Assembly (NCBI GenBank): GCA_964576615.1
Contig: CAZNUU010000001.1
Coordinates: forward strand, 95,309 to 159,308
Reading direction: 5' to 3'
Origin: an uncultured Candidatus Saccharibacteria bacterium
GTDB lineage: Bacteria; Patescibacteriota; Minisyncoccia; Phycocordibacterales; DATDWN01
DNA: 64,000 bases
Positions 2,251-60,870 of this stretch are shown piece by piece (position 1 is the stretch's first letter; each line of letters opens with the position of its first letter). A program made the translations under genes and the position numbers. The notes under the pieces are model-generated. The model was not told the DNA's origin. It did no database searches and saw only the letters and a program-made list of their open reading frames with translations.

Positions 2251-3834
2251 ATGTCTGAAGAAAATTTACCAAAGACTATATCTGGTGCTACGCCAGAAAT
2301 TCCATTTCAGATGTATGAAGTTTCTGGTCAAGACACGATTAGCCAACATGCTTTCGAGAGATATATAAAAGACAGAGACCAGGATGAGAGTATTTCAAAA
2401 AGTGCGGAAACACGAGAAGAAAAAAATTTACTTAAAAAAATAGACGCAGTCAATTATGCAAATAATTTTGGCCTTATTTCAGAGAACTTAGATAATCCGG
2501 ACCCTATTATGCAAGAAAGGGCAGCTGAGCTTATAGCTTTTATTCCCTCGGATAAACGACTTGAGCTTATAATGCGTTTCCTTGAAAAAGGTCCGAATGT
2601 ACAGGTTGCGGCACTTGAAGGTCTTCAACATTTAAGCCCAGAAGTGTGGGAAAATATTTTACCAGTGATCAAGGATAGAATTGATCTTGGACTAAATAGT
2701 AATGAGGAAGAAAAAGTGATAATGGCAATAAAAATGATTCACTATATATACAGTAGCGATGATACATCAAAATTTATAATGCGGGTTCTGACAGATAAAA
2801 TTGAGTACTGGGAATTATTAAGAAGTTCACTTTTTGATGCAAACGAGGAAGTAAAAAATTTTATCGACGAACTAGTGTTGAAAAAACTGAATTCAAAAGA
2901 CAATTCAGATAAAAAAATGGTAGTGGGTTTACTTCAGTTTGGACATGCCGAGAAAATACTTGAAACTATAATGAAAGTCACATTAGATGATGATGAATTT
3001 GCTTTTAAAATGTCCACTATAATATTTTCAGCTCCAGAAAAGGATCAGCTTAAATTTATTAGGACCATATTAGATAGGGACATTCGCTATCACGAACTGG
3101 CCGCGGAACTCATTAGTTACATGCTTGTAAATGCTCCGGTGGAAGAGGATGAACCTGAATTTAATGCAGTTTTAGATGAGACTATGAAAAAAGCCAAGGA
3201 AGATCTACTAGATGAGAACGTAGAAGTTCGACGAACTGGGGCTAGGATAGCAGTCTTACTTGATCCCAGTAATGACAATGAATTGACGAGCTTGGCAATT
3301 GAGAGAGGAGTCAGCGATGAGCTAGTTAAAGCACCTATTTATGCTAACACTGGGGTTAATAAACAGAAATTCTTTCGGGCTGATTTTTTCAAAACTGGAT
3401 CAGAGACAACTTTATTAGGGGGAGAACTAAAAGATAAAACTATTGTAAGACATATTGAACCAGGGGCATTCCTCACCTGGCAGAAGTTATTTGAGAATTA
3501 TAAATTGTGGCAGGACAATGGTTTCGATTATGTCCCGATCGAGCCGATTCACTCATATAGACTTGATAATAATGGTCTGGTAGATGTTTTTTGTGGAGTG
3601 CTTGATCTTAATCTAGAAGACTGGATGGAAAGAAGCAAGGCACATAATAAAGAATTGACAGAGCAGATGGAAAGAATAACAGGGGTATTAGAAAAGTCTG
3701 GCATAGAGCATGGCCACCCCCATGAGAAGAATTTTTGTTTGCGCTTTTGGCGAGATTCAAGCGGACAAGTAGATTTTAATAGAATCCCCAGACTTTATTT
3801 GATTGATTTTGATATGGCTGCATCACTACCTTAA
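2251..3834 (+). CDS. Hypothetical protein: helical-repeat N-terminus plus C-terminal atypical kinase-like motifs
   Basis: AT-rich native-style gene. The C-terminus has HGHPHEKNF, resembling the HGDxHxxN catalytic loop of APH/CotS/RIO kinases with Asp replaced by His. It is followed by LYLIDFDMA, a DFG/IDFD-like motif. Confidence 0.6.
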   Translation: MSEENLPKTISGATPEIPFQMYEVSGQDTISQHAFERYIKDRDQDESISKSAETREEKNLLKKIDAVNYANNFGLISENLDNPDPIMQERAAELIAFIPSDKRLELIMRFLEKGPNVQVAALEGLQHLSPEVWENILPVIKDRIDLGLNSNEEEKVIMAIKMIHYIYSSDDTSKFIMRVLTDKIEYWELLRSSLFDANEEVKNFIDELVLKKLNSKDNSDKKMVVGLLQFGHAEKILETIMKVTLDDDEFAFKMSTIIFSAPEKDQLKFIRTILDRDIRYHELAAELISYMLVNAPVEEDEPEFNAVLDETMKKAKEDLLDENVEVRRTGARIAVLLDPSNDNELTSLAIERGVSDELVKAPIYANTGVNKQKFFRADFFKTGSETTLLGGELKDKTIVRHIEPGAFLTWQKLFENYKLWQDNGFDYVPIEPIHSYRLDNNGLVDVFCGVLDLNLEDWMERSKAHNKELTEQMERITGVLEKSGIEHGHPHEKNFCLRFWRDSSGQVDFNRIPRLYLIDFDMAASLP

Positions 3835-24005: not shown

Positions 24006-24099
24006 GAAAACTAATATAACAAATATAATATAAATAGCTAATTTGGTGACAGAAAATAGCGCAAAACACGGGCCTGGCTTTCCTGTTATAATCTACCTC

Positions 24100-24756
24100 A
24101 TGAATAATACGGAAAAGCTGATAGAGATGTTTAAGGAATTTCCTGGAATAGGCCCGAGACAAGCAAAAAGATTTGTATACTTTCTCCTAAATAGAAGTTC
24201 TGGCTACTCTGAGAGTTTGGCTAGATTAATAATGGAGGTCAGATCAACGGTCCATAATTGTGATACCTGTTTTAGATTTTTCTCCCTAAACTCCAACGGA
24301 GTCGGGCGATCTGCTAAGGCAGATGTAGCCAACTCAAAAAATAAGACCTGCCCAATATGCCTAGACCAGAGTCGCGAAGACAGTTTACTTATGCTTGTTT
24401 CAAATGATGTCGATCTAGAAAATATAGAAAAAACAAAAGTCTACAATGGATATTATTTCGTCTTGGGGGGAAACATTCCAATCCTCGAAAAAAATCCTGA
24501 GAAAAGAATAAGACAAAGTGAGCTTTTAGATATTGTTGAGAAAAGAGTGAAAAATGGACTAAAGGAGATCGTAATCGCCCTCAATTATAATCCTGAAGGT
24601 GAAAACACTTTGAGTTATCTGGTGGAGATCTTAAAGCCACTTATCACTAAAAACAAAATTAAAATTTCCACACTTGGGCGAGGACTCTCAACGGGCACAG
24701 AACTGGAATACTCTGACACAGACACCATAAAAAACGCTTTCAAAAATAGACAGTAG
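24100..24756 (+). CDS. recR: Recombination protein RecR
   Basis: HhH FPGIGPRQAKRF, C4 zinc finger (CDTC...CPIC) and Toprim region. Start taken at the internal Met; the ORF track begins at 24043. Confidence 0.85.
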   Translation: MNNTEKLIEMFKEFPGIGPRQAKRFVYFLLNRSSGYSESLARLIMEVRSTVHNCDTCFRFFSLNSNGVGRSAKADVANSKNKTCPICLDQSREDSLLMLVSNDVDLENIEKTKVYNGYYFVLGGNIPILEKNPEKRIRQSELLDIVEKRVKNGLKEIVIALNYNPEGENTLSYLVEILKPLITKNKIKISTLGRGLSTGTELEYSDTDTIKNAFKNRQ

Positions 24757-28517: not shown

Positions 28518-28694
28518 ACTAAATTTGGCTTAGTTGCAGGTGTTTTGTAAAGATTGAATAAATTGTGTTTTTGTCAAGAATCACAGACATACAACGCATA
28601 GGTAATTGGCAACAAAAACACGAAGCTAAAATTAGTGTGCGGATTAATTATCTCACCCTATTAAAGTTTTTTCAACAACAAAATCTCGTCGAGT

Positions 28695-28846
28695 CATGTT
28701 TCGAGGAGAGCCTTGAGAGCGCACTTTCGCAATCACGAGGTGAGAAGCGGAGCTTCGCAAGACCTTGAGCACGTAGTAGCGAAAGGTGTACAGCTTCTGT
28801 AAGAAGATTTTTAGCAAGAAAATATCCGTGCTCTCTGAGAAACATG
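28695..28846 (+). repeat. Dispersed structured repeat, copy 1 (modules A-B-C, 152 nt)
   Basis: Near-identical to 54716..54867. The outer arms CATGTTTCGAGGAGAGC and GCTCTCTGAGAAACATG are largely complementary. A 67-nt core B (28741..28807) is shared with 47147..47213. Confidence 0.6.
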
Positions 28847-28899
28847 ATGAGAAAGAGATTCCGATTGTGGTCTAATATTTCATACGATATAATTTAAAG

Positions 28900-35143: not shown

Positions 35144-35500
35144 CCTATTAGTATAACAAAAAAATTTTACAGATAAAAAGAAAAGAGGCCCTGCAGTGAC
35201 GCGGAGCCCCCAACGTCCCCCAGAGGTGACGGTCAAGCTGCATGTCGAGTGGACACGCGATTTTGTGTTGTGGTGTCCTCGGCTTGCGCCCAGAACTCCT
35301 CGAGTTCATTTTCGGGTGTGACCCCGAACCTGAGACCCAAGACCTCAACCCATCCTCGCTGCGCCCATCGGCCGCTGCTTGAACCGTTCACTCCTGTGGA
35401 ACATTGACAACTATATACCCATGAAAAAATAAAGTCAACATTTTTTTACAACAGAAAACAAATTATTAATGTTTGTCAAAATATCTAAAATTTGTCGAAC

Positions 35501-35589
35501 CATGTTTCGAAGAGAGCCTTGCGAGCGCGACTGGCGCGAGCACGAGGAATTTTTCAGCAGAAAAATATCCGTGCTCTCTGAGAAATATG
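35501..35589 (+). repeat. Structured repeat, copy 2 (modules A-C only, core B absent)
   Basis: CATGTTTCGAAGAGAGCCTTGCGAGCGCGACTGGCGCGAGCACGAGG is joined directly to the C arm ...ATCCGTGCTCTCTGAGAAATATG. Confidence 0.5.
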
Positions 35590-35688
35590 GTGAGAAAAAA
35601 TTTTAGATATTCAGGTCTATAGTTCTTTCTCACACTTTTCTTTTTGGAAACACTCATCTTTTCCAGCGAAAAGACTCGTTCGGTCCTC

Positions 35689-35737
35689 GGCCTCTACTTG
35701 TCAAGAAAGGTGCCTTGACAAGACCATGCTAGAGGCC
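35689..35737. repeat. REP-like nested palindrome (inverted copy of 47109..47133)
   Basis: GGCCTCTA ... CTTGTCAAG-AAAGGTGC-CTTGACAAG ... TAGAGGCC. Confidence 0.4.
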
Positions 35738-35775
35738 TGCGGATGTTCCAAAAAGGAAAAGTGTTCAACGAAACC

Positions 35776-37014: not shown

Positions 37015-37053
37015 TTATACTTTAGTATGCTACTATCAAAGTGGGAGGTTTTC

Positions 37054-37248
37054 ATGACCGAAAAAGAGTCGAAAGAAGTTTCAGCCCTCGTCTTCATCCT
37101 GCTGCTGTGCTCCTTCGTTGGCCTTGCGGTTCACTACCAGACCTACGGAATTGCAGCTGGAATCGCCGTCTTCACCATCATTGGCGGAATCGGCGAGGTC
37201 GGGGCGTCCATCGAAAGGAAGCTGGACGAGCTCAAGCAGCCCAAGTAG
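37054..37248 (+). CDS. Small two-helix membrane protein (GC-rich cassette)
   Basis: TTGACA-17-TACTAT promoter. GGGAGG SD 4 nt before ATG 37054. Confidence 0.45.
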   Translation: MTEKESKEVSALVFILLLCSFVGLAVHYQTYGIAAGIAVFTIIGGIGEVGASIERKLDELKQPK

Positions 37249-37296
37249 TTCCACGTAGGCGTCGGGTAACCCCCGGCACCTTGTCTATTTTACACC

Positions 37297-39996
37297 TTAT
37301 TTTCTATAAGCTCTGTACTGTTTCAGTGCTTTTTTCAAATAATGCCCCGTATGACTTTTTTCATTATTGGCGACTTGTTCCGGTGTTCCTTTGGCAATAA
37401 GCTGACCCCCGTCGTCTCCCCCTTCGGGACCAATATCTAAAATATAGTCAGTCGATTTTATTACATCCATATTGTGTTCGATAACCAAAACTGTATTGCC
37501 TTTGTTCACCAATTTCTGCAAAATTTCAATTAACTTTTTTACATCCTCGTAGTGAAGCCCGATGGTTGGCTCATCTAGTAGGTAAATGGTTTTCTGTAAG
37601 TGCGGCCTGTACAACTCTGATGAGATTTTTACTCTCTGGGCCTCACCACCAGAGAGGGTGGTAGCTGATTGACCCAGCTCAAGATATCCCAGACCTACCT
37701 CATCTAGAGTTCTTAATCTGTCTGCGATCGCAGGAATATCTTCAAAAAATTTAAGAGCCTCTTCTACTGTCATTTTCAAGACATCATGAATATTTTTCTT
37801 CTTGTAGTGAACTTCCAGAGTCTCTCTCATAAATCTTTTACCTTTACAGACATCACAGGGCACATAAACAGTCGGCAAAAAATGCATTTCAACCTCAATC
37901 ATGCCATTACCTTGGCAGACTTCACAGCGTCCGCCTTTCACGTTAAATGAAAACCTATTGGCCTTCCACCCACGTGCACGAGCCTCTACAGTTTCTGCAA
38001 ACAAATCACGAATAAACGTCCAGGCACCAGTGTATGTCGCAGGATTAGATCTTGGGGTTCGACCGATGGGAGACTGATCGATCAGAATTGCTCGACCTAA
38101 ATACTCTGTGCCATTGAAGGAAGAGCAATTGAAAATCTGGTTTGATCTGTACTTTCTTTCAAATCTGGCCTGTAGGTTTCTATGCAAAATTTCGTAAACA
38201 AATGACGACTTACCTGAACCAGAGACCCCTGTTACCGCTATAAATTTACCTAAGGGAATATCGACGTTTAGATTTTTGATGTTAAATATTTTTCCGCCCC
38301 GAATCTGAATCGCTCCCCTTTGTTCCTCTCTTCTTTTTTCTGGAACTTCTACTACTTCATCTCCCCTTAAATAATCTAGTGTAAGAGAACCGGAATTATT
38401 TTTCTTGGCAGTAAGTAAATCGTCGAGATAGCCGCTTACCACCACATCTCCCCCATGCACACCAGCTCCTGGGCCAATATCTACAATATAGTCCGAGGCA
38501 AAAATAGTATCTTCATCGTGTTCCACAACTATTATTGTGTTCCCAAGGTCACGTAAGTTCAGCAAGGTCTTAACCAAACGATCGTTATCGCGAGAATGTA
38601 ACCCAATGGTCGGCTCATCCAAGACATATAGCGCGCCAACCAAGCCAGAGCCAAGTTGAGAGGCAAGTCGTATTCTTTGAGCCTCCCCACCAGAAAGAGT
38701 GTGCGCTCTACGGTTTAGCGAAAGATACTCAATACCAACATTTATCATAAAGAGAAGTCTGGATTCGATCTCTTTTATCACTACTTTTGAGATACTTTTT
38801 TCCCTTTCTGTAAGTTTCGCTTTTGTTATAAAATCATATGCATCTTTTATGGACATAGCGGTAAACTCAACAACATTTTTTTTGCCAATTAAGACATGCA
38901 GAGCCTCTGGACGTAGTCTTGCACCTTTACAGACGGGACAAGGCTCATTGCCAAAAAAATGCCGTGTACCTAGACCATTACACTCGGGACAAGCACCATA
39001 GGGCGAGTTAAACGAAAAAAGTCTTGGTTCAATTTCTGGGAAAGAGTAGCCATCTCGCGGGCAAGAGAGTTTAGATGACATGAAAAATTCCTCCCTAAAC
39101 CCAGGCTCTGCCTGGGTCGGGCGATCATCCCTTAGGGATGATTTAGCCCTAAATCCTTGGTCGGATCGGGCGACCGAGCTAGCACTCGGTTTAGCCTTAT
39201 TCATATCCTCGAATACTATTTTTACGAGTCCCTCAGATTCATGTAGAGCTTTTTCTAAATCTTCCGAGAGTCTCTCTTCTGCACTTTTCGGATCAGATTT
39301 GAAATCTAAAATGGAGATCGAATCAACCAGGACATCTATTTCATGTCTTTTTGTCTTGGACAGTTCGACTCTCTCTCGCAGGGATCTTTTAACACCATCA
39401 ACTAAGACATATGAATAACCCCTACCCAATAGATCATAAAGAAGTTGGTAATACTCCCCTTTTCTACCCCGGACAACTGGAGAATATATTTCAACATTTA
39501 AAGGTAAGGGAATTTTTCCTGCCTTTGGACTAGTCTTTTTCTTTTCGTTTATTTTATCTAAAACGAAATTTTTTATTTCTTCATTGGAAAGTTTCTCTAA
39601 CTCCAGACCACAAATAAGGCAGTGCGGATGGCCTATTCGCGAGTATAAAATACGTAAGTAATCATAAATCTCTGTGATGGTGGCTACAGTCGAACGCGGG
39701 TTATTGGAGCGGGACTTTTGATCAATAGAAATTGCAGGAGATAACCCCGCTATCTCATCTACTTCTGGTTTTTGCATCTGACGTAGGAACTGCCGAGCAT
39801 AGGAAGAGAGTGATTCTACGTATCTTCTCTGACCTTCAGCAAAAATAGTATCGAAAGCCAAAGACGACTTGCCTGACCCTGAAAGACCAGTGAAGACGAT
39901 CATTTTGTTACGCGGCATCTCAACCGTAATGTTCTTAAGGTTGTGGGTACGCGCACCTTTAACTATAATTTTTTCTTCTTTTTTATCACCTTTCAT
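37297..39996 (-). CDS. uvrA: Excinuclease ABC subunit A
   Basis: Two ABC modules with Walker [12 protein letters not shown] and GVSGSGKSS. Zn fingers present. Contains an in-frame low-complexity insertion. Confidence 0.95.
39090..39195. repeat. In-frame palindromic insertion within uvrA (RPE-like)
   Basis: Nested palindromes CCCAGGCTCTGCCTGGG, ATCCCTTAGGGAT and CCGAGCTAGCACTCGG. Shares CTGGGTCGGGCGA with uvrB 41400..41412. Encodes ...[14 protein letters not shown]... Confidence 0.5.
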
Positions 39997-40107
39997 ATAA
40001 TAAAATTTGCCCTGCGTTTGAGATACAGGGTTGTAGGGAACACGAGTAATGCTAGCACATTTATGTAAAAACGAAAACCGGCGAGCCTTCGGGCACGCCG
40101 GTCGAAA

Positions 40108-40362
40108 CTAGATCCAGGATTCCCCTTGTCGCCTCTTTTTCAGAGCCGCAAGTGCCGATTTTGCAACTTTGACAAGATACATCACGAGATCTTCAATGAG
40201 CTGGGTCACCACAAAGGCGAACCCGATCACCCCGAGAAGTGCTGTAACTGCCAAAAGTGCGAAAAGGACTACAGCGACAAGGAAGACAACTAGGATCGCA
40301 GCCAGCACACTCACCGTCACGATGAGCATGATAATGGAATCAGCGAGTGATCCTTGGTCCAT
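40108..40362 (-). CDS. Small hydrophobic membrane protein (GC-rich cassette, second gene)
   Basis: The ATG overlaps the upstream TGA by 1 nt. Very hydrophobic. Confidence 0.4.
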   Translation of the reverse strand: MDQGSLADSIIMLIVTVSVLAAILVVFLVAVVLFALLAVTALLGVIGFAFVVTQLIEDLVMYLVKVAKSALAALKKRRQGESWI

Positions 40363-40601
40363 CAGGCCCTCCTCTTGCGACGATGGTGTTCGATCGCCGA
40401 AACCCCAGCACTTCCGGCAAATGTGACTAGTGCCAAGAGCTCACCGATCGCAACGGCCGCCGGCGTCCCCGTCTTCACCAACTGCCATCTGGCCGAGACT
40501 GGCGGCCGAACCACAGCCGAGTTACGGTTTGCGTAGCCCACGAGAAGCGTGACTGCCATGATAAGAGCAAACCTTAATGCCAATAGGCACCTCCAATTCA
40601 A
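40362..40601 (-). CDS. Small membrane protein (GC-rich cassette, first gene)
   Basis: TTG start in the track, or an internal ATG. GGAGGTG lies upstream. Hydrophobic. Confidence 0.4.
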   Translation of the reverse strand: MNWRCLLALRFALIMAVTLLVGYANRNSAVVRPPVSARWQLVKTGTPAAVAIGELLALVTFAGSAGVSAIEHHRRKRRA

Positions 40602-40631: not shown

Positions 40632-42812
40632 CTACTGCAGTAGATCTCTATTTCTTGGATTTCTTACCTTTTTTTCTTTTTTGGGCAGTGTAAGTCTTTG
40701 TAATTCCATAATTTCATCTCGTAAAATTGCTGCTGTTTCGAAATCAAGGATTTTTACTGCACCATCCATTTGCTTCTCCTTTTGTTTAATCAGCTTTTCC
40801 GGATCTTTTTCCATCATTTTCTTATCGATTCTCAAAAGCTCATCGACTGTCTTGGTATGTTCTGACTTTATTTGATCCGTAATGTCTTGAATCTTTTTTA
40901 TAATCGTCTTTGGGGTAATGCCATGCTTTTTATTGAATTCTACTTGCAAGTTTCTCCTGCGATTAGTCTCATCAATTGCATACTTCATGGAACCAGTAAC
41001 GTTATCAGCATAAAGAATAACTCTGCCATTTACATTTCTCGCCGCTCTACCAATTATTTGGATAAGTGATGTTTCGCTCCTGAGAAATCCTTCCTTATCC
41101 GCATCCAAAATCCCAATAAGTGTTACCTCTGGCAAATCCAAGCCTTCTCTAAGTAGATTTACCCCAACCAAAATATCGAACTCCCCCTTTCGAAGTCTAG
41201 TTAAAATCTCAATTCTCTCTATTGTTTTTATATCACTGTGCAAATACTCCGCTCGGATTCCTTTCTCTTTTAGATACTCACTCAAATCTTCCGCCATTTT
41301 TTTGGTAAGAGTTGTGGCAATTGCTCTCCCTCCTGCCTTGATCGCTTTATCTGCCTCGGAAATAAAATCTGCAATTTGGCCCCTATACCCAGACTTTGTC
41401 TGGGTCGGGCGAATATTTGCTTCTGCAAATGTTTTAGCCTGATCATCTGAAGTAATTGGTCTAACTTCTATCATTGGATCAACCAATCCCGTTGGCCTTA
41501 TGACCTGCTCCACAATCCCCGACGTTTCAGTCGGGGCTCCGACCTCCGATCTCAGCTGATCGGAGCGTCGGAGTTGCTTCACCGACTCTTGGCTCTTTTT
41601 AATTTCATAATCGCTGGGCGTTGCAGAAGTGTAAATAACCTGGCCAACTCGTTCTTCGAACTCTTCGAACTTAAGTGGCCTGTTGTCTTTGGCACTTGGA
41701 AGTCTAAAGCCGTAGTCAATCAATGACTGTTTTCTGGATGCATCCCCTGCATACATTGCCCCAAGCTGAGGCACCGTGACATGCGACTCATCAATTATTG
41801 TCAAAAATTCAGCTTTGCCTGCTTTGTCATGAGGAAAATAGGAAAGAAGCGTATCTGGCGGCTCACCTGGTGCTTTACCCGAGAAGTGCCTGGAATAATT
41901 TTCAATGCCGTTGCAATAACCCATCTCTCGAATTAAAGCTAGGTCATTTGTCGTTCGTCTCTTTAGTCTCTCTACCTCAAGTAACTTGCCTTCTTTTTCG
42001 AGTTCCTTAAGTCTAACTTTCAATTCTTCTTTTATGGATTTAAAAGCTCTCTCAATTTGCTCTTCGCTTGAAATAAAGTGCTTGGCCGGAAAAAGAAAGA
42101 ACAAATCGAGTTCTTTAATGATTTCGCGAGTTATAGCGTTTATAAGTAGGATTTGTTTTATTTTGTCTCGCTCTATCTCTATTCTATAAATAACTTTTTC
42201 CGATACAGGCATAATCTCAATCATGTTACCGATTGCTCGAAACAAGCCAGGAGTTAAATCTGCCGTGGTTCTTTCAAAGTGAATATTTATTAGCCGCCTT
42301 ATAAATTCAGCTCTCGAAATAGCTTGGTCTACAGCTATCTTCATGTTCACCTTTTCATATTCAACTGGAGAGCCGAGACCATAGATACACGAAACGGAAG
42401 CCACAATAATCACATCTTTCCTTGTAAGTAGTGCCTGAGTGGAGGCATGGCGGAGTCTTTCAATTTCCTCATTTATCATCGCTTCCTTCTCTATATATGT
42501 ATCAGAGACAGGCATGTAGGCCTCGGGCTGATAGTAGTCGTAGTAAGAGACAAAGTAGTGCACGGCATTTTTTGGAAAAAATTCTCTATACTCTTGCGCC
42601 AGTTGAGCCGCTAGAGTTTTGTTGTGAGCAATAACAAGGGTTGGCTTTTGAACCTCTGCAATCACATTCGCGGCAGTAAAAGTTTTACCTGAACCGGTCA
42701 CGCCCAAAAGAGTTTGGTGCTGAAAGCCCTTTTTTATACCAGAGACAAGCGCCTCAATTGCTTTGGGCTGATCTCCGGCCGGTTTTAGTTCTTTGTTGAG
42801 TTCGAATTTCAT
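40632..42812 (-). CDS. uvrB: Excinuclease ABC subunit B
   Basis: Walker A GVTGSGKTFT, helicase motifs and a UvrB C-terminal domain. Carries palindromic in-frame insertions. Confidence 0.95.
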   Translation of the reverse strand: MKFELNKELKPAGDQPKAIEALVSGIKKGFQHQTLLGVTGSGKTFTAANVIAEVQKPTLVIAHNKTLAAQLAQEYREFFPKNAVHYFVSYYDYYQPEAYMPVSDTYIEKEAMINEEIERLRHASTQALLTRKDVIIVASVSCIYGLGSPVEYEKVNMKIAVDQAISRAEFIRRLINIHFERTTADLTPGLFRAIGNMIEIMPVSEKVIYRIEIERDKIKQILLINAITREIIKELDLFFLFPAKHFISSEEQIERAFKSIKEELKVRLKELEKEGKLLEVERLKRRTTNDLALIREMGYCNGIENYSRHFSGKAPGEPPDTLLSYFPHDKAGKAEFLTIIDESHVTVPQLGAMYAGDASRKQSLIDYGFRLPSAKDNRPLKFEEFEERVGQVIYTSATPSDYEIKKSQESVKQLRRSDQLRSEVGAPTETSGIVEQVIRPTGLVDPMIEVRPITSDDQAKTFAEANIRPTQTKSGYRGQIADFISEADKAIKAGGRAIATTLTKKMAEDLSEYLKEKGIRAEYLHSDIKTIERIEILTRLRKGEFDILVGVNLLREGLDLPEVTLIGILDADKEGFLRSETSLIQIIGRAARNVNGRVILYADNVTGSMKYAIDETNRRRNLQVEFNKKHGITPKTIIKKIQDITDQIKSEHTKTVDELLRIDKKMMEKDPEKLIKQKEKQMDGAVKILDFETAAILRDEIMELQRLTLPKKEKKVRNPRNRDLLQ
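41385..41585. repeat. In-frame palindromic insertions within uvrB (RPE-like)
   Basis: CCCAGACTTTGTCTGGGTCGGGCGA at 41388..41412. GC-rich nested hairpins CCCCGAC-GTTTCA-GTCGGGG and CTCCGAC...GTCGGAG at 41505..41580. Confidence 0.45.
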
Positions 42813-47069: not shown

Positions 47070-47261
47070 GGTTCTTGTTTTCGAGCCTCCGCAGGCCGCA
47101 AACACGGTTTTGTCAAGGCACCTTTCTTGACAAATTGTGGCCGAGGTGAGAAGCGGAGCTTCGCAAGACCTTGAGCACGAAGTAGCGAAAGGTGTACAGC
47201 TTCAGTAAGAAGAGCCGAGAGCTTCGCTGGAAGCTTGAGGGTAGCAAGAAAACAAGAACCC
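47069..47261. mobile_element. MITE-like non-coding element with 14-bp terminal inverted repeats
   Basis: TIRs GGGTTCTTGTTTTC and GAAAACAAGAACCC. Contains a REP-like palindrome (47109..47133) and a core-B copy (47147..47213). Exactly fills the gap between convergent stop codons. Confidence 0.5.
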
Positions 47262-54689: not shown

Positions 54690-54715
54690 GAAATTATTAT
54701 AACACTAAAACGAAC

Positions 54716-54867
54716 CATGTCGTGAAGAAAGCCTTGGGAGCGCACTTTCGCGAACACGAGGTGAGAAGCGAAGCTTCGCAAGACCTTGAGCACGTAGTAG
54801 CGAAAGGTGTACAGCTTCTGTAAGAAGACTTTCAGCAGAAATTTATCCGTGCTTTCTTCACGACATG
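54716..54867 (+). repeat. Structured repeat, copy 3 (modules A-B-C, 152 nt)
   Basis: Outer arms CATGTCGTGAAGAAAGC and GCTTTCTTCACGACATG are perfectly complementary over 17 bp. Compensatory changes relative to copy 1. Confidence 0.6.
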
Positions 54868-54879
54868 GTGAGTACACTC

Positions 54880-55845
54880 TTATGCAATCAAAAGCGGTGC
54901 AAACAGAATTGACTGATATATATACAAAAGACCCAAGATAATGACTAGTAGCCCTATGCCAAGGAAAATCATTCTAGGATGTTGTAGCTTGATCTCAATA
55001 AATATCATTAAGATAAGACCTAAGACAATTATGAATGAGAGAATGAAGTAAATAAAGCTTAGTGACTCATCTGGATTAGTTAAAATCTTTTGCCAGGCAC
55101 TTGAATATTTTGAAGTTGGAGTGTTGGTCGAGTTAGCTGATTTTTTACCGACAGCGATGAACAATTCATTGGTGGATGTCGATTCAGCCAAAACAACTTG
55201 AGTGGTTGTAGCCGGTTTTGAAACTGTAGTTTTCGGAGGCTTTACCGTGGTAGTCGGTTTAACTACTGGTAGCACAACCTCTTGTTCTGCAGGTGTACCG
55301 AACAATTCCACAACAAAAACAGTGTGTCTCCCTTGATAGACTCCTTCCGCAGTAGCAATACCAATTTCGGTGAAATTTTCATTCATTATGTTTGCTCTGT
55401 GCCCTGGAGAATTCATCCAGGCCTGATTTACTTGAGAGGAGTCATCAAAGTTAACTGCCAGGTTTTCACCGGCATAACTGAAATCATAACCAACCTGTCT
55501 AAACCAATACCAAGGGTTTCGCCCCTCTGGAGAAGTGTGCGCAAAATAACTTTTTTCAGCCATGTCATTGGCTTTAAGCTGAGCTGCTCTCTCCAAGGTA
55601 GAATTTATTGCGAGCTGTCTGTAATTACTTGTGGCTCTGTCTTCGTTTGCATAATCGACAAGAACCTTAGGCAAAACTAGGGCAGTTAAGTTTGTTCTGA
55701 CTAGAATTACCCTATTAGACAGAACCGCAACAAAAGCGACAATAACCAGTGAAAGAAGTCCTAAGACTCCTGCTTCTCGGAATAGGTGGGGTTTAAAGTC
55801 GTTTTCCTTGTGAGGGATGAAGTATTTCTTAAACCACTTTTTCAT
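54880..55845 (-). CDS. CAP (SCP/PR-1-like) domain protein with C-terminal membrane anchor
   Basis: YFAHTSPEG and SPGHRANIMN CAP motifs. Pro/Thr linker and C-terminal hydrophobic helices. Confidence 0.75.
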   Translation of the reverse strand: MKKWFKKYFIPHKENDFKPHLFREAGVLGLLSLVIVAFVAVLSNRVILVRTNLTALVLPKVLVDYANEDRATSNYRQLAINSTLERAAQLKANDMAEKSYFAHTSPEGRNPWYWFRQVGYDFSYAGENLAVNFDDSSQVNQAWMNSPGHRANIMNENFTEIGIATAEGVYQGRHTVFVVELFGTPAEQEVVLPVVKPTTTVKPPKTTVSKPATTTQVVLAESTSTNELFIAVGKKSANSTNTPTSKYSSAWQKILTNPDESLSFIYFILSFIIVLGLILMIFIEIKLQHPRMIFLGIGLLVIILGLLYIYQSILFAPLLIA

Positions 55846-59358: not shown

Positions 59359-60870
59359 TTAGACATAACCAGGAAAGAAATCGACTTTAATATTTGAACT
59401 CTTCACCCCCATTTTTTTAAGTGTTGCCTCAAAAGCATCTACCATTACATGCGGACCAGAAATATAAAATTTTCTCTCCATAAAATCTGGAGTTTCTTTT
59501 TTTATACTTTCCTCTGAAATAGTCCCGACTCGAAAGTTTGCTAACATCACTTTTCCAGATGGATCACCAAAAAAATAAACTGCCTTTAGGCCAACTTTTT
59601 TTTCGGCATTGTCAAAAACATCTTTATAAACTATGTCATTTGCTGTCTTATTTGAAAAAAACAATACTGCATCCCGGGTTTGGTTTCGATCTAGAAGATC
59701 TTGAACTATAGATCTAAATGGTGTAATCCCTATTCCCCCTGCAATAAAAGCAAGTTTTTGATCCTTGTCCTGTGGTAAAACAAACTCGCCCGATAGCTGA
59801 GAGGCCATTATTCTATCTCCTGGTGATAGGCCCGCTAATTTATTCTTAAAACTGGAACCGTTGGGATAGAATTTAACACCAAGCCTCAAGTTCTCCTCCA
59901 TCGGGGAGGAAGCAATAGTAAAATATCTTCTATTTCCTCTCATATCGGCTTTATCGTGTCCCAAAGTCCATTCCAAATATTGCCCAGCTTTAAAATTAAT
60001 CTTTTTTCCTTTCCAAACAAACTCGTACACATCGGAAGATAATTTGTTTTTTTGAACAAGTGTTAGAACTAATCGATCTTTTGGACTAACGATATATGCA
60101 AAAATATTCCCAATGATTAGCGCAAATTCTGGCGTGGAATACAATGGCCCAAAGTGAAACTGCACCCCATATAAGATACCGACAATTGCCCCATAAATAA
60201 CTTGAAGCCTTCTAGTTGGTGGAGTAGTGGAAGGCTCGGTGAGCATTATTACCCCAAGGAAAATCAGTGGACCATGAGAGAAGATTTGATCTAATGTATC
60301 AACACCCAATTTCAAAGAAAAGCCGAAATAGAGAGCGGAAAGAAAGCCAAAAATGGCAAAAGAGAAAAACATTGAGAATCTCTTCACTTTTCTTAAAACC
60401 AAAATACCTAGGATGGCTACCGGTATGATAAGAGCATCGCCTCCTACCCACCAGGCAGACATGCCACTACCCAAAAGACCAGCAATAAATATTGCTATAG
60501 CGGTGGGGTTAAATATATGTTTCTTTTTTATAGCTAATATGTACTTTGAAGCCATTGCCCCGACTCCGACTAAAACTGTGACCCATAAATCATTCAGAGT
60601 AGATATGGGAAAAAGAATAAAAAACAAAATAAAAGCCGTGATTAAGTAAGACTCTGAGTTAGCATCTACTTTAAATAATTTGGCTAACAACAAATTGGCG
60701 AGATAGCATGAAACAGATAATGCGAGAGCTGAATATATTAAACTTAAGGGACTGAAGGCGACAAAACCAAAAAAACTCATCCCTACAGAGTAAACAATCA
60801 AAACTAGTAGTCCGTACAAGACAAGCTTGTATATGGTAATTTTATTTAAAAAATCATCAACATATTTCAT
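59359..60870 (-). CDS. Membrane-bound FNR-like oxidoreductase (polytopic N-terminal domain fused to an FAD/NAD(P)-binding reductase)
   Basis: About 8 N-terminal TM helices. RRYFTIASSP (FAD RxYS-type motif) and AGGIGITPF (NAD GGxGxxP motif). Confidence 0.7.
   Translation of the reverse strand: MKYVDDFLNKITIYKLVLYGLLVLIVYSVGMSFFGFVAFSPLSLIYSALALSVSCYLANLLLAKLFKVDANSESYLITAFILFFILFPISTLNDLWVTVLVGVGAMASKYILAIKKKHIFNPTAIAIFIAGLLGSGMSAWWVGGDALIIPVAILGILVLRKVKRFSMFFSFAIFGFLSALYFGFSLKLGVDTLDQIFSHGPLIFLGVIMLTEPSTTPPTRRLQVIYGAIVGILYGVQFHFGPLYSTPEFALIIGNIFAYIVSPKDRLVLTLVQKNKLSSDVYEFVWKGKKINFKAGQYLEWTLGHDKADMRGNRRYFTIASSPMEENLRLGVKFYPNGSSFKNKLAGLSPGDRIMASQLSGEFVLPQDKDQKLAFIAGGIGITPFRSIVQDLLDRNQTRDAVLFFSNKTANDIVYKDVFDNAEKKVGLKAVYFFGDPSGKVMLANFRVGTISEESIKKETPDFMERKFYISGPHVMVDAFEATLKKMGVKSSNIKVDFFPGYV

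Follow-up and report, generated by a model that had tools for sequence, protein, structure and literature searches.

How did perfect palindromes come to lie inside the coding sequences of uvrA and uvrB? The question is raised by a 64,000-nucleotide (nt) stretch of contig CAZNUU010000001.1 (positions 95,309 to 159,308, forward strand; assembly GCA_964576615.1) from an uncultured Candidatus Saccharibacteria bacterium, referred to below as the window. A sequence-only reading of this DNA had described palindromic mini-elements inserted in frame in both genes, and had likened them to Rickettsia palindromic elements (RPEs). Our data lead us to conclude, with a probability of roughly 75%, that these palindromes belong to two dispersed families of palindromic repeats, which are very small, non-autonomous and DNA-level in nature. 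Family 1 is dispersed through Patescibacteria, mainly Paceibacteria, and family 2 is found in metagenome contigs. Family 1 is multi-copy, occurs in both orientations, is variably present among orthologous genes, and is found in near-identical form in unrelated genes. That such elements are selfish and that they integrate, as the sequence-only reading put it, is what we infer from these patterns.

Palindromic units in uvrA, uvrB and recR

In the window, uvrA (37297-39996, minus strand, 899 amino acids) and uvrB (40632-42812, minus strand, 726 amino acids) both stay open in frame through their palindromic segments, and all of the palindromes quoted by the sequence-only reading are present where it had placed them. 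The uvrA segment is also GC-rich, as described (58% at 39100-39199, compared to 41.8% for the window). The roughly 100 nt of nested palindromes reported in uvrA are present as well, but resolve into two tandem units. Unit B (39093-39148, minus strand) reads GGCTAAA TCATCCCTAAGGGATGA TCGCCCGA CCCAGGCAGAGCCTGGG TTTAGGG and contributes 18 translated residues; unit A (39149-39196, minus strand) reads GGCTAAA CCGAGTGCTAGCTCGG TCGCCCGA TCCGACCAAGGA TTTAG and contributes 16. Hairpin 2 of unit A is degenerate, and the two units have one GG in common. The uvrB gene carries extra sequence at two sites, and the element at site 2 (41381-41439, minus strand) reads GGCTAAA ACATTTGCAGAAGCAAATAT TCGCCCGA CCCAGACAAAGTCTGGG TATAGGG, encoding the peptide AKTFAEANIRPTQTKSGYR. 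The proposed homology between the uvrA and uvrB sites extends beyond the shared 13-mer CTGGGTCGGGCGA to a full architecture of GGCTAAA, hairpin, TCGCCCGA, hairpin and TWTAGGG, and both copies encode RPTQ in the same frame. The palindrome cluster in uvrB at 41505-41580, which had been grouped with these elements, is real but not homologous to them; it belongs to the separate family 2, described below.

Exact matches to the 13-mer are found in the window at 39112 and 41400 only. A search for TCGCCCGA revealed a further copy, not foreseen by the sequence-only reading, in recR (24043-24756, plus strand, 237 amino acids; Pfam RecR_HhH and Toprim_4). This copy lies antisense to the gene (24284-24330, minus strand), reads GGCTACA TCTGCCTTAGCAGA TCGCCCGA CTCCGTTGGAG TTTAGGG, and contains a two-mismatch match to the 13-mer at 24297 (chance expectation 0.49 hits at two or fewer mismatches). 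Read on the plus strand it gives SLNSNGVGRSAKADVA, with one Cys pair of the RecR zinc finger on either side. We built a covariance model, R1, from 48 family-1 copies and ran it over the whole window with filters off. The model recovered four units, namely uvrA unit B (59.7 bits, E = 3.5e-13), uvrA unit A (32.2 bits, E = 3.8e-06), the uvrB site 2 element (48.1 bits, E = 3.3e-10) and the recR element (33.9 bits, E = 1.4e-06), with no further match in the window. Another match to TCGCCCGA, at 59786, has no hairpins and was set aside as chance.

Family 1 can be summarized as GG-CTAAA-palindrome1-TCG-CC-CGA-palindrome2-TTTAG-GG, with a length of 44-80 nt, in which the framing is constant and the two perfect palindromes differ among copies. 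On folding and inspection the element proved quasi-symmetric, with two copies of a unit (CTAAA-palindrome-TCG) placed head to head; R1 also matches the reverse strand at every copy, which confirms the symmetry. The central CC of the core is the complement of both flanking GG dinucleotides. When these dinucleotides were left unconstrained in the search, 90 of 92 cores still showed GG/CC/GG, and a divergent core in one locus (L008; loci and proteins outside the window are given L and P numbers) shows CA/TG/CA, preserving the complementarity between flank and center. Family 1, like family 2, is apparently an undescribed family of tiny hairpin repeats.

We aligned UvrA and UvrB with solved structures and with 120 orthologues each (79-100% identity for UvrA). 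UvrA residues 259-301 (43 residues) take the place of 7 residues in solved UvrA structures, and UvrB contains extra blocks at about residues 412-430 (site 1) and 454-476 (site 2), both missing from solved UvrB structures. The closest relatives of both proteins carry Parcubacteria/Paceibacteria names, within the Candidate Phyla Radiation (CPR), by which we assign the window's organism to this group. Most of the 120 UvrA orthologues read FRDMAQEKNKDYVPEEFFMS and are insert-free; an RPTQ-type insert is found in three, and the RPTQ...FRE block is shared by P0003 and P0013 only. Similarly, 85 of the 120 UvrB orthologues are insert-free at both sites; among Paceibacteria orthologues with 75-89% identity, the majority have no such insert. 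Because most orthologues, including those of the closest relative (L002, 89% UvrA identity), which is without all three inserts, do not have these segments, we conclude that they are lineage-specific insertions, in agreement with the sequence-only reading. The uvrB site 2 element is missing in L002 and L005 and is found at the same site in L045 and P0129; the recR site is likewise occupied by an element in L025. At the uvrA site, L003 and L005 show the same family-1 design as the window, and hairpin 2 differs among the copies by compensatory pairs (ACCCAGGC/GCCTGGGT, ACCCAGAC/GTCTGGGT and ACTCAGGC/GCCTGAGT).

We also mapped the uvrA insert onto an AlphaFold model of UvrA, built from a 44-sequence alignment and of moderate quality (mean predicted local distance difference test score, pLDDT, of 65). 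Residues 268-300 are modeled as a coil with pLDDT ~30, flanked by beta-strands at 257-264 and 302-307. The insert is thus predicted to form a floppy loop at a hairpin turn.

The same protein regions are variable in other ways. Both the UvrA loop (259-301) and UvrB site 2 (454-476) host other recurrent inserts in other lineages, with loop peptides such as SSAGxAxFSSKNTAS, RSEGNK...ATTDY, GKGR..GPGQ..ALCQP, SSPRGTLG and TRVTLA (in P0031, P0037, P0056, P0083, P0096, P0103, P0104, P0148, P0171, P0216 and others). We considered whether two UvrA-loop inserts of this kind, SSAG..FSSKNTAS in L127 and RSESNK..ATTDY in L128, are family 1 or family 2 read in another frame, and rejected this idea: they contain at most one weak hairpin. 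The UvrA of L005 (P0013; 10001-12814) has an extra 27-residue insert, KKKVKLSADTNANTHAESNLSAKGAKG, after LIGKK that is not in the window's UvrA. Finally, the window's UvrA is without the ~115-residue insertion domain of class I UvrA (its residues 344/345 align to residues 304/420 of 9gxk), and the same shortness is seen in every one of the 120 close orthologues (855-948 amino acids).

Dispersal of the two families

We scanned one genome per species for the pattern GGCTAMA-N(8-34)-TCGCCCGA-N(8-24)-TWTAGGG, leaving the hairpins unconstrained. The scan identified at least 119 family-1 loci, nearly all in Patescibacteria metagenome-assembled genomes from many candidate lineages. The census figures given here rest on the matches listed, from which 130-132 copies were parsed. 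Outer stems of at least 4 bp are present in both variable segments of 110 of 132 copies, with mean stem lengths of 6.8 and 6.4 bp compared to 1.8 bp in shuffled sequences, and only two matches (L034 and L120) are hairpin-free and chance-like. Among copies pre-selected for good stems, every stem position varies, always by double Watson-Crick changes. R1 detected about 13 extra copies in 746 kb of locus flanks, tandem arrays among them. These data bear out the earlier suggestion that other copies would be found: the family is dispersed over many genes, in both orientations and several reading frames, and over non-coding DNA too. A scan of viral contigs gave no family-1 match and thus no sign of phage carriage. 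Across the window and 28 loci, no Rfam 15 family overlaps the element at gathering score, with only the adjacent tRNA, tmRNA, RNase P and rRNA genes matching. Our literature searches, which miss most subscription journals, found no paper on these elements. In locus L010, the group I intron family of Rfam (RF00028) matches at 3154-3454 with 57.8 bits, about 1.3 kb from a family-1 copy.

About a quarter to a third of family-1 copies lie within protein-coding genes. The host proteins are large housekeeping enzymes: FtsK, SecA, ThrRS, IleRS, LeuRS, ArgRS, RecG, RecR, RNase R, BipA, MnmA, UvrA and UvrB, with an ExoX-like exonuclease and an ExoIII-like nuclease as further hosts. Within open reading frames (ORFs) of at least 600 nt, 27 of 31 copies share one length class modulo 3 (measured length minus 2 divisible by 3), compared to a 28/19/18 split over the length classes for the 65 copies that lie in no long ORF. 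The single class inside ORFs is a signature of selection against frameshifts. Copies in ORFs are therefore filtered for a 3n length and an open frame, and are translated as extra loop residues. Mean copy length is 56 nt in ORFs and 60 nt outside. One orientation and phase dominates in ORFs, giving AK...SPD or RPT...FRE, and other phases and the opposite strand are also used; the peptide readings include AK..SPD..FRE, WLK..SPD..DLG and LN..GR/SGE..LA.

A sign of mobility comes from a 53-nt subfamily, GGCTAAA TCCAGCGAAGCTGGA TCGCCCGA CGCTTCAGAAGAAGCG TTTAGGG, which is near-identical in the FtsK, SecA, ThrRS, IleRS and ExoX-like genes of different genomes and has a variant in ArgRS. Near-identical copies in non-homologous genes go beyond orthologous inheritance and argue for mobility.

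We next asked at which level the palindromes are maintained. In an RNA helix under RNA-level selection, G-U pairs are expected to build up on one strand. Of 1797 stem pairs, 1764 (98%) are Watson-Crick, 14 are G.T, 9 are A.C and 10 are other combinations, and the 3-4 nt loops are nearly equal in both orientations (16 TACT versus 14 AGTA; 16 GAA versus 11 TTC). Because there is no G-U excess and the loops are balanced by orientation, we view the palindromes as DNA-level inverted repeats whose arms evolve in concert. Hairpin 2 of the recR copy illustrates this, with CTCC-GTT-GGAG in the window and CTCCAGC-GTT-GCTGGAG in L025. The arms are probably kept complementary by templated correction, through a hairpin or a template switch.

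The second uvrB cluster revealed another family, which the sequence-only reading had not recognized as separate. The site 1 element (41517-41573, minus strand, 57 nt) reads CTCCGAC G CTCCGATCAGCTGAGATCGGAG GTCGGAG CCCCGAC TGAAAC GTCGGGG, with its peptide within ...LRRSDQLRSEVGAPTETSG, and R1 gives no match there. A related peptide, LRR...VGAPTE[TA]SG, is found at the same UvrB site in P0123, P0221 and P0226. The constant frame of family 2 is CTCCGAC-G-[x]-GTCGGAG-CCCCGAC-loop-GTCGGGG, in which x is a perfect palindrome that differs between the window and L126 and is merely a short loop in L125. A metagenome scan identified at least 120 loci with this frame, some contigs carrying two copies. 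Among the matches listed, 22 of 31 copies in ORFs have a 3n length, compared to a 20/22/15 split over the length classes outside ORFs; the link of family 2 to tRNAs is only loose. Family 2 is a second dispersed family with the same building principle as family 1.

Placement at stable-RNA genes and alternative explanations

Family-1 copies outside coding sequences persist at tolerated places: the periphery of RNase P RNA, intergenic DNA, and the DNA upstream of position +1 of tRNA and transfer-messenger RNA (tmRNA) genes. The last of these placements, also unforeseen by the sequence-only reading, is exact. Of 130 copies, 31 have a tRNA or tmRNA boundary no more than 2 nt away; of these, 23 are in sense orientation at the 5' end (of tmRNA, tRNA-Glu, tRNA-Ser and tRNA-Ala), four are antisense at the 5' end, and four are at tRNA 3' ends. 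All 27 copies at 5' ends abut +1 (within 2 nt by ARAGORN coordinates), with none at an intermediate distance. The outer GG (or CC) of a tRNA-abutting copy is nucleotides 1-2 of the tRNA. Because the tRNA-Lys beside an antisense copy begins with CC, the element's flanking dinucleotide on that strand, the core CTAAA...TTTAG abuts +1 in both orientations. Copies that seem to lie 84-284 nt away are no true exceptions, since what follows them is a tRNA 5' fragment and then a further insertion. tmRNA, tRNA-Glu and tRNA-Ser carry family 1 in many lineages, with hairpins that have diverged yet are perfect. Reading the flanks of tRNA-abutting copies by eye, we found promoter-like TGnTATAnT boxes 10-30 nt upstream; the element in these genes would be transcribed as a leader, then removed by RNase P. 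The RNase P RNA of L040 contains two family-1 copies, both peripheral, and in L016 a copy lies just ahead of the conserved P4 strand of RNase P RNA.

Some of these RNA genes have further unusual features. In five loci (L015 3360-3450, L048 4100-4324, L072 4037-4325, L066 318-402 and L113 975-1100), the 5' acceptor strand of tRNA-Glu or tRNA-Ser directly follows the element, and ARAGORN puts the remaining tRNA 84-284 nt downstream. It seems that an insertion or intron splits these tRNA genes shortly past the acceptor/D region. In L077 (7050-7480), two family-1 units in tandem stand immediately before a tmRNA-like sequence, and a third unit about 215 nt further on is apparently within or just after that tmRNA.

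Such placements suggest that family 1 might instead be a functional module of stable-RNA genes, serving either as a structured 5' leader that aids transcription, folding, protection or RNase P processing, or as an accessory domain of RNase P RNA, with the ORF copies a secondary spill-over. The invariable abutment to +1, the recurrence of the element at the same RNAs in many lineages with diverged but perfect hairpins, the promoter-like boxes that would place the element in the transcript, and the two copies inside RNase P RNA are all consistent with this idea. The stems are not: the lack of a G-U excess and the occurrence of the loops in both orientations are unlike helices selected as RNA. 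A quasi-symmetric element that sits in both orientations at tRNA 5' ends, and at tRNA 3' ends as well, also fits poorly with a leader function, as do the many copies in ORFs or unrelated intergenic DNA and the window's own two tRNA-Ala genes, neither of which has a family-1 copy. Further, bacterial RNase P is not, to our knowledge, known to prefer a leader that is paired up to position -1. Overall, we consider a stable-RNA module unlikely.

In a bolder version, family 1 would be more than junk at safe sites: an element guided by structure, with a biology linked to RNase P substrates. This proposal draws on the observations that the core ends at +1 in either orientation, shares its terminal dinucleotide with the mature RNA, and resides in RNase P RNA. 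Pairing between the flanking GG and the central CC could select targets beside tRNA-like DNA or RNA folds; alternatively, RNase P cleavage could define the 3' end of the element, leading either to RNA-mediated spread or to a CPR-specific leader module recognized by the processing machinery. In either case, hairpin-templated correction would keep the variable palindromes perfect. We regard this proposal as speculative and rather improbable.

A third explanation is that the palindromes arose locally, by repeated template-switch (quasi-palindrome) mutation in tolerant loops, and are not mobile, with their shared motifs the product of convergence. Template switching would account for arms that are perfectly complementary and evolve in concert, and for stems that grow symmetrically, as in recR hairpin 2 between the window and L025; the UvrA and UvrB loops are, moreover, hotspots for many unrelated inserts. 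It would not account for the recurrence of three constant motifs, always in one order, in unrelated contexts at more than 130 sites, a number far above the chance expectation of the pattern and with hairpin-free matches limited to L034 and L120, nor for a near-identical 53-nt copy in non-homologous genes of different genomes. Template switching could maintain the palindromes but not create their common framing, and as a full explanation it is very improbable. Protein-level adaptation, for instance an RPTQ...GFR motif in UvrA-UvrB interaction with the palindromic DNA incidental, is hardly credible even though UvrA and UvrB have RPTQ in the same frame and some other lineages keep inserts at the same sites, since in other proteins this DNA is translated in different frames and from the opposite strand, family 1 also occupies non-coding DNA and RNA genes, most orthologues are without the insert, and the uvrA insert is modeled as disordered. 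Hammerhead and other ribozymes, integron attC sites, terminators, translational bypass elements and mini-inteins were each rejected on sequence grounds (no conserved catalytic cores, the site upstream of tRNAs, open 3n frames, and size).

A possible route of spread and relation to known systems

If the palindromes are dispersed repeat families, as we favor, they may spread by transposing as folded single-stranded DNA. The copies could be mobilized in trans by an enzyme specific for their structure, in a manner resembling systems based on REPINs (doublets of repetitive extragenic palindromic sequences, REPs) and RAYTs (REP-associated tyrosine transposases), or systems of the IS200/IS605 type. 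The target might be a GG beside stem-forming DNA, perhaps recognized through its pairing with the central CC. Hairpin-templated correction, and not selection at the RNA level, would keep the palindrome arms complementary.

One candidate for such an enzyme is a 237-residue Y1 transposase that adjoins uvrB in a relative (L126, 2703-3416; Pfam PF01797, E = 8.6e-10), with homologues in two element-bearing loci (L093 5763-6464 and L119 1437-2096). No relative of this RAYT-like protein with a solved structure was found by sequence. If each genome had one such gene, chance alone would place roughly two in 119 loci of 8 kb, and we therefore treat these genes as a lead and not as evidence. The RAYT-like gene of L119 is bracketed by near-identical perfect palindromes (TTACAGAGGTTTAACCTCTGTAA) at 1398-1428 and 2108-2134, an arrangement that is REP-RAYT-like and distinct from family 1.

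Several observations weigh against dispersal by transposition. We found no transposition event and no link between an enzyme and the element: no family-1 copy or half-unit adjoins any of the three RAYT-like genes, their sole NCBIfam match, the REP-associated tyrosine transposase family (REP_Tyr_transpos), scores 41-47 bits against a cutoff of 80, and a tblastn search with the L126 protein found nothing in the window, including the GC-rich uvrB-uvrA spacer. In the searched databases there is no near-identical strain without the insert (the closest UvrA is 89% identical and the closest UvrB 83%). At the uvrA and uvrB sites, the insert takes the place of several native loop codons instead of being a clean addition, so that the exact element boundaries there are only approximate. 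The GG flanks covary with the center and may thus be part of the element rather than a target duplication. The UvrA, UvrB and RecR sites are also occupied in distant lineages, with compensatory stem changes, which requires either strong target specificity or long retention combined with many losses. The exact abutment to +1 could also signal a function. Finally, our scan pattern fixed the three constant motifs, and their conservation is consequently overstated.

The window contains other repetitive and compositionally unusual DNA. A second, unrelated repeat system occupies intergenic positions 28674-28865, 35480-35608, 35685-35753, 47078-47260 and 54695-54886. Three of these copies include a 72-nt block (GTGAGAAGCGGAGCTTCGCAAGACC...GTAAGAAGA, 97-99% identical) directly after CGAGG, at 28736-28807, 47142-47213 and 54757-54828. 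The paralogous copies at about 35.5 and 35.7 kb cleanly lack the block, which has no Rfam match and may represent either a further mini insertion element or an RNA domain that is optional. Patches of 57-67% GC lie downstream of uvrA (37050-37300) and in the uvrB-uvrA spacer (40000-40600), compared to 42% for the genome, and contain no Rfam match, tRNA, or similarity to RAYT-like proteins. Contig L001, from the same genome, has two small ORFs called in this spacer, of 73 and 84 amino acids.

The genomes of CPR/Patescibacteria are tiny, dense in genes and thought to be repeat-poor. Our data point to at least one abundant mini-element family in CPR, with a second in this genome, reshaping stable RNAs and essential proteins including UvrA, UvrB, RecR, RecG, FtsK, SecA and several aminoacyl-tRNA synthetases. 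These families would partly explain why CPR proteins and the RNase P and tmRNA genes vary in length and carry low-complexity inserts, and could serve as a marker for lineage tracing. They also call for caution among annotators and structure predictors, for whom such inserts would be parasitic DNA and not functional domains. The combination of a constant frame, free palindromes and placement at tRNA +1 makes family 1 tractable for the study of structure-specific DNA transposition and of the concerted evolution of hairpin arms.

How does family 1 compare to known elements? RPEs are 100-150 bp long and occupy both intergenic and protein-coding DNA; RPE families have proliferated in a lineage-specific way, with some insertions both old and shared (PMC1779305). 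Like family 1, RPEs lie in frame in conserved housekeeping genes, including those for aminoacyl-tRNA synthetases, in a small, reduced host genome. The analogy drawn by the sequence-only reading thus holds at the functional level, for copies in frame in housekeeping genes, in intergenic DNA and in RNA genes, but fails for size, phylum and architecture, and probably for sequence. Family 1, at 44-80 nt, is about half as long and resides in a different phylum, and homology is unlikely given its Patescibacteria hosts; unlike RPEs, it keeps only ~22 nt constant, framing two palindromes of free sequence. We know of no description of exact abutment to tRNA or tmRNA +1 as a property of RPEs.

REPINs consist of two inverted REPs (PMC3337134, PMC3116915). 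They share with family 1 the inverted short palindromic units separated by a tiny spacer, the capacity to form hairpins in single-stranded DNA, and a multi-copy, apparently non-autonomous and mostly vertically persistent character, and RAYT-like Y1 transposase genes are present in related genomes. REPs differ in that a GTAG or CGTC tag accompanies a conserved palindrome (PMC3733652), compared to CTAAA and TCG with copy-variable palindromes in family 1. REPs are also extragenic, whereas many family-1 copies are intragenic and translated, and a RAYT gene is flanked by the same repeats, whereas family 1 is not found beside the RAYT-like genes, which score below the cutoff. Miniature inverted-repeat transposable elements (MITEs) and palindromic elements derived from IS200/IS605 are small, non-coding and hairpin-forming, like family 1. 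The 5-bp CTAAA/TTTAG terminal inverted repeat of family 1 is MITE-like, and its GG..GG flanks are possibly the element's own; a search confined to the fetched loci found no parent insertion sequence with matching ends. Recognition of a flank by pairing with internal sequence is reminiscent of the guide sequences of IS608, and we saw no sign in family 1 of strand-specific insertion 3' of a fixed tetranucleotide. Cyanobacterial small dispersed repeats (SDRs) are tiny mobile hairpin repeats that nest and that also lie inside conserved and stable-RNA genes; they differ from family 1 in sequence, size and host phylum.

In-frame palindromic mini-elements are a known kind of element. The distinctive features of family 1 are its constant frame around free, perfect palindromes and its exact placement at tRNA and tmRNA +1. 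By analogy, family 1 would work like RPEs and look like REPINs while belonging to neither.

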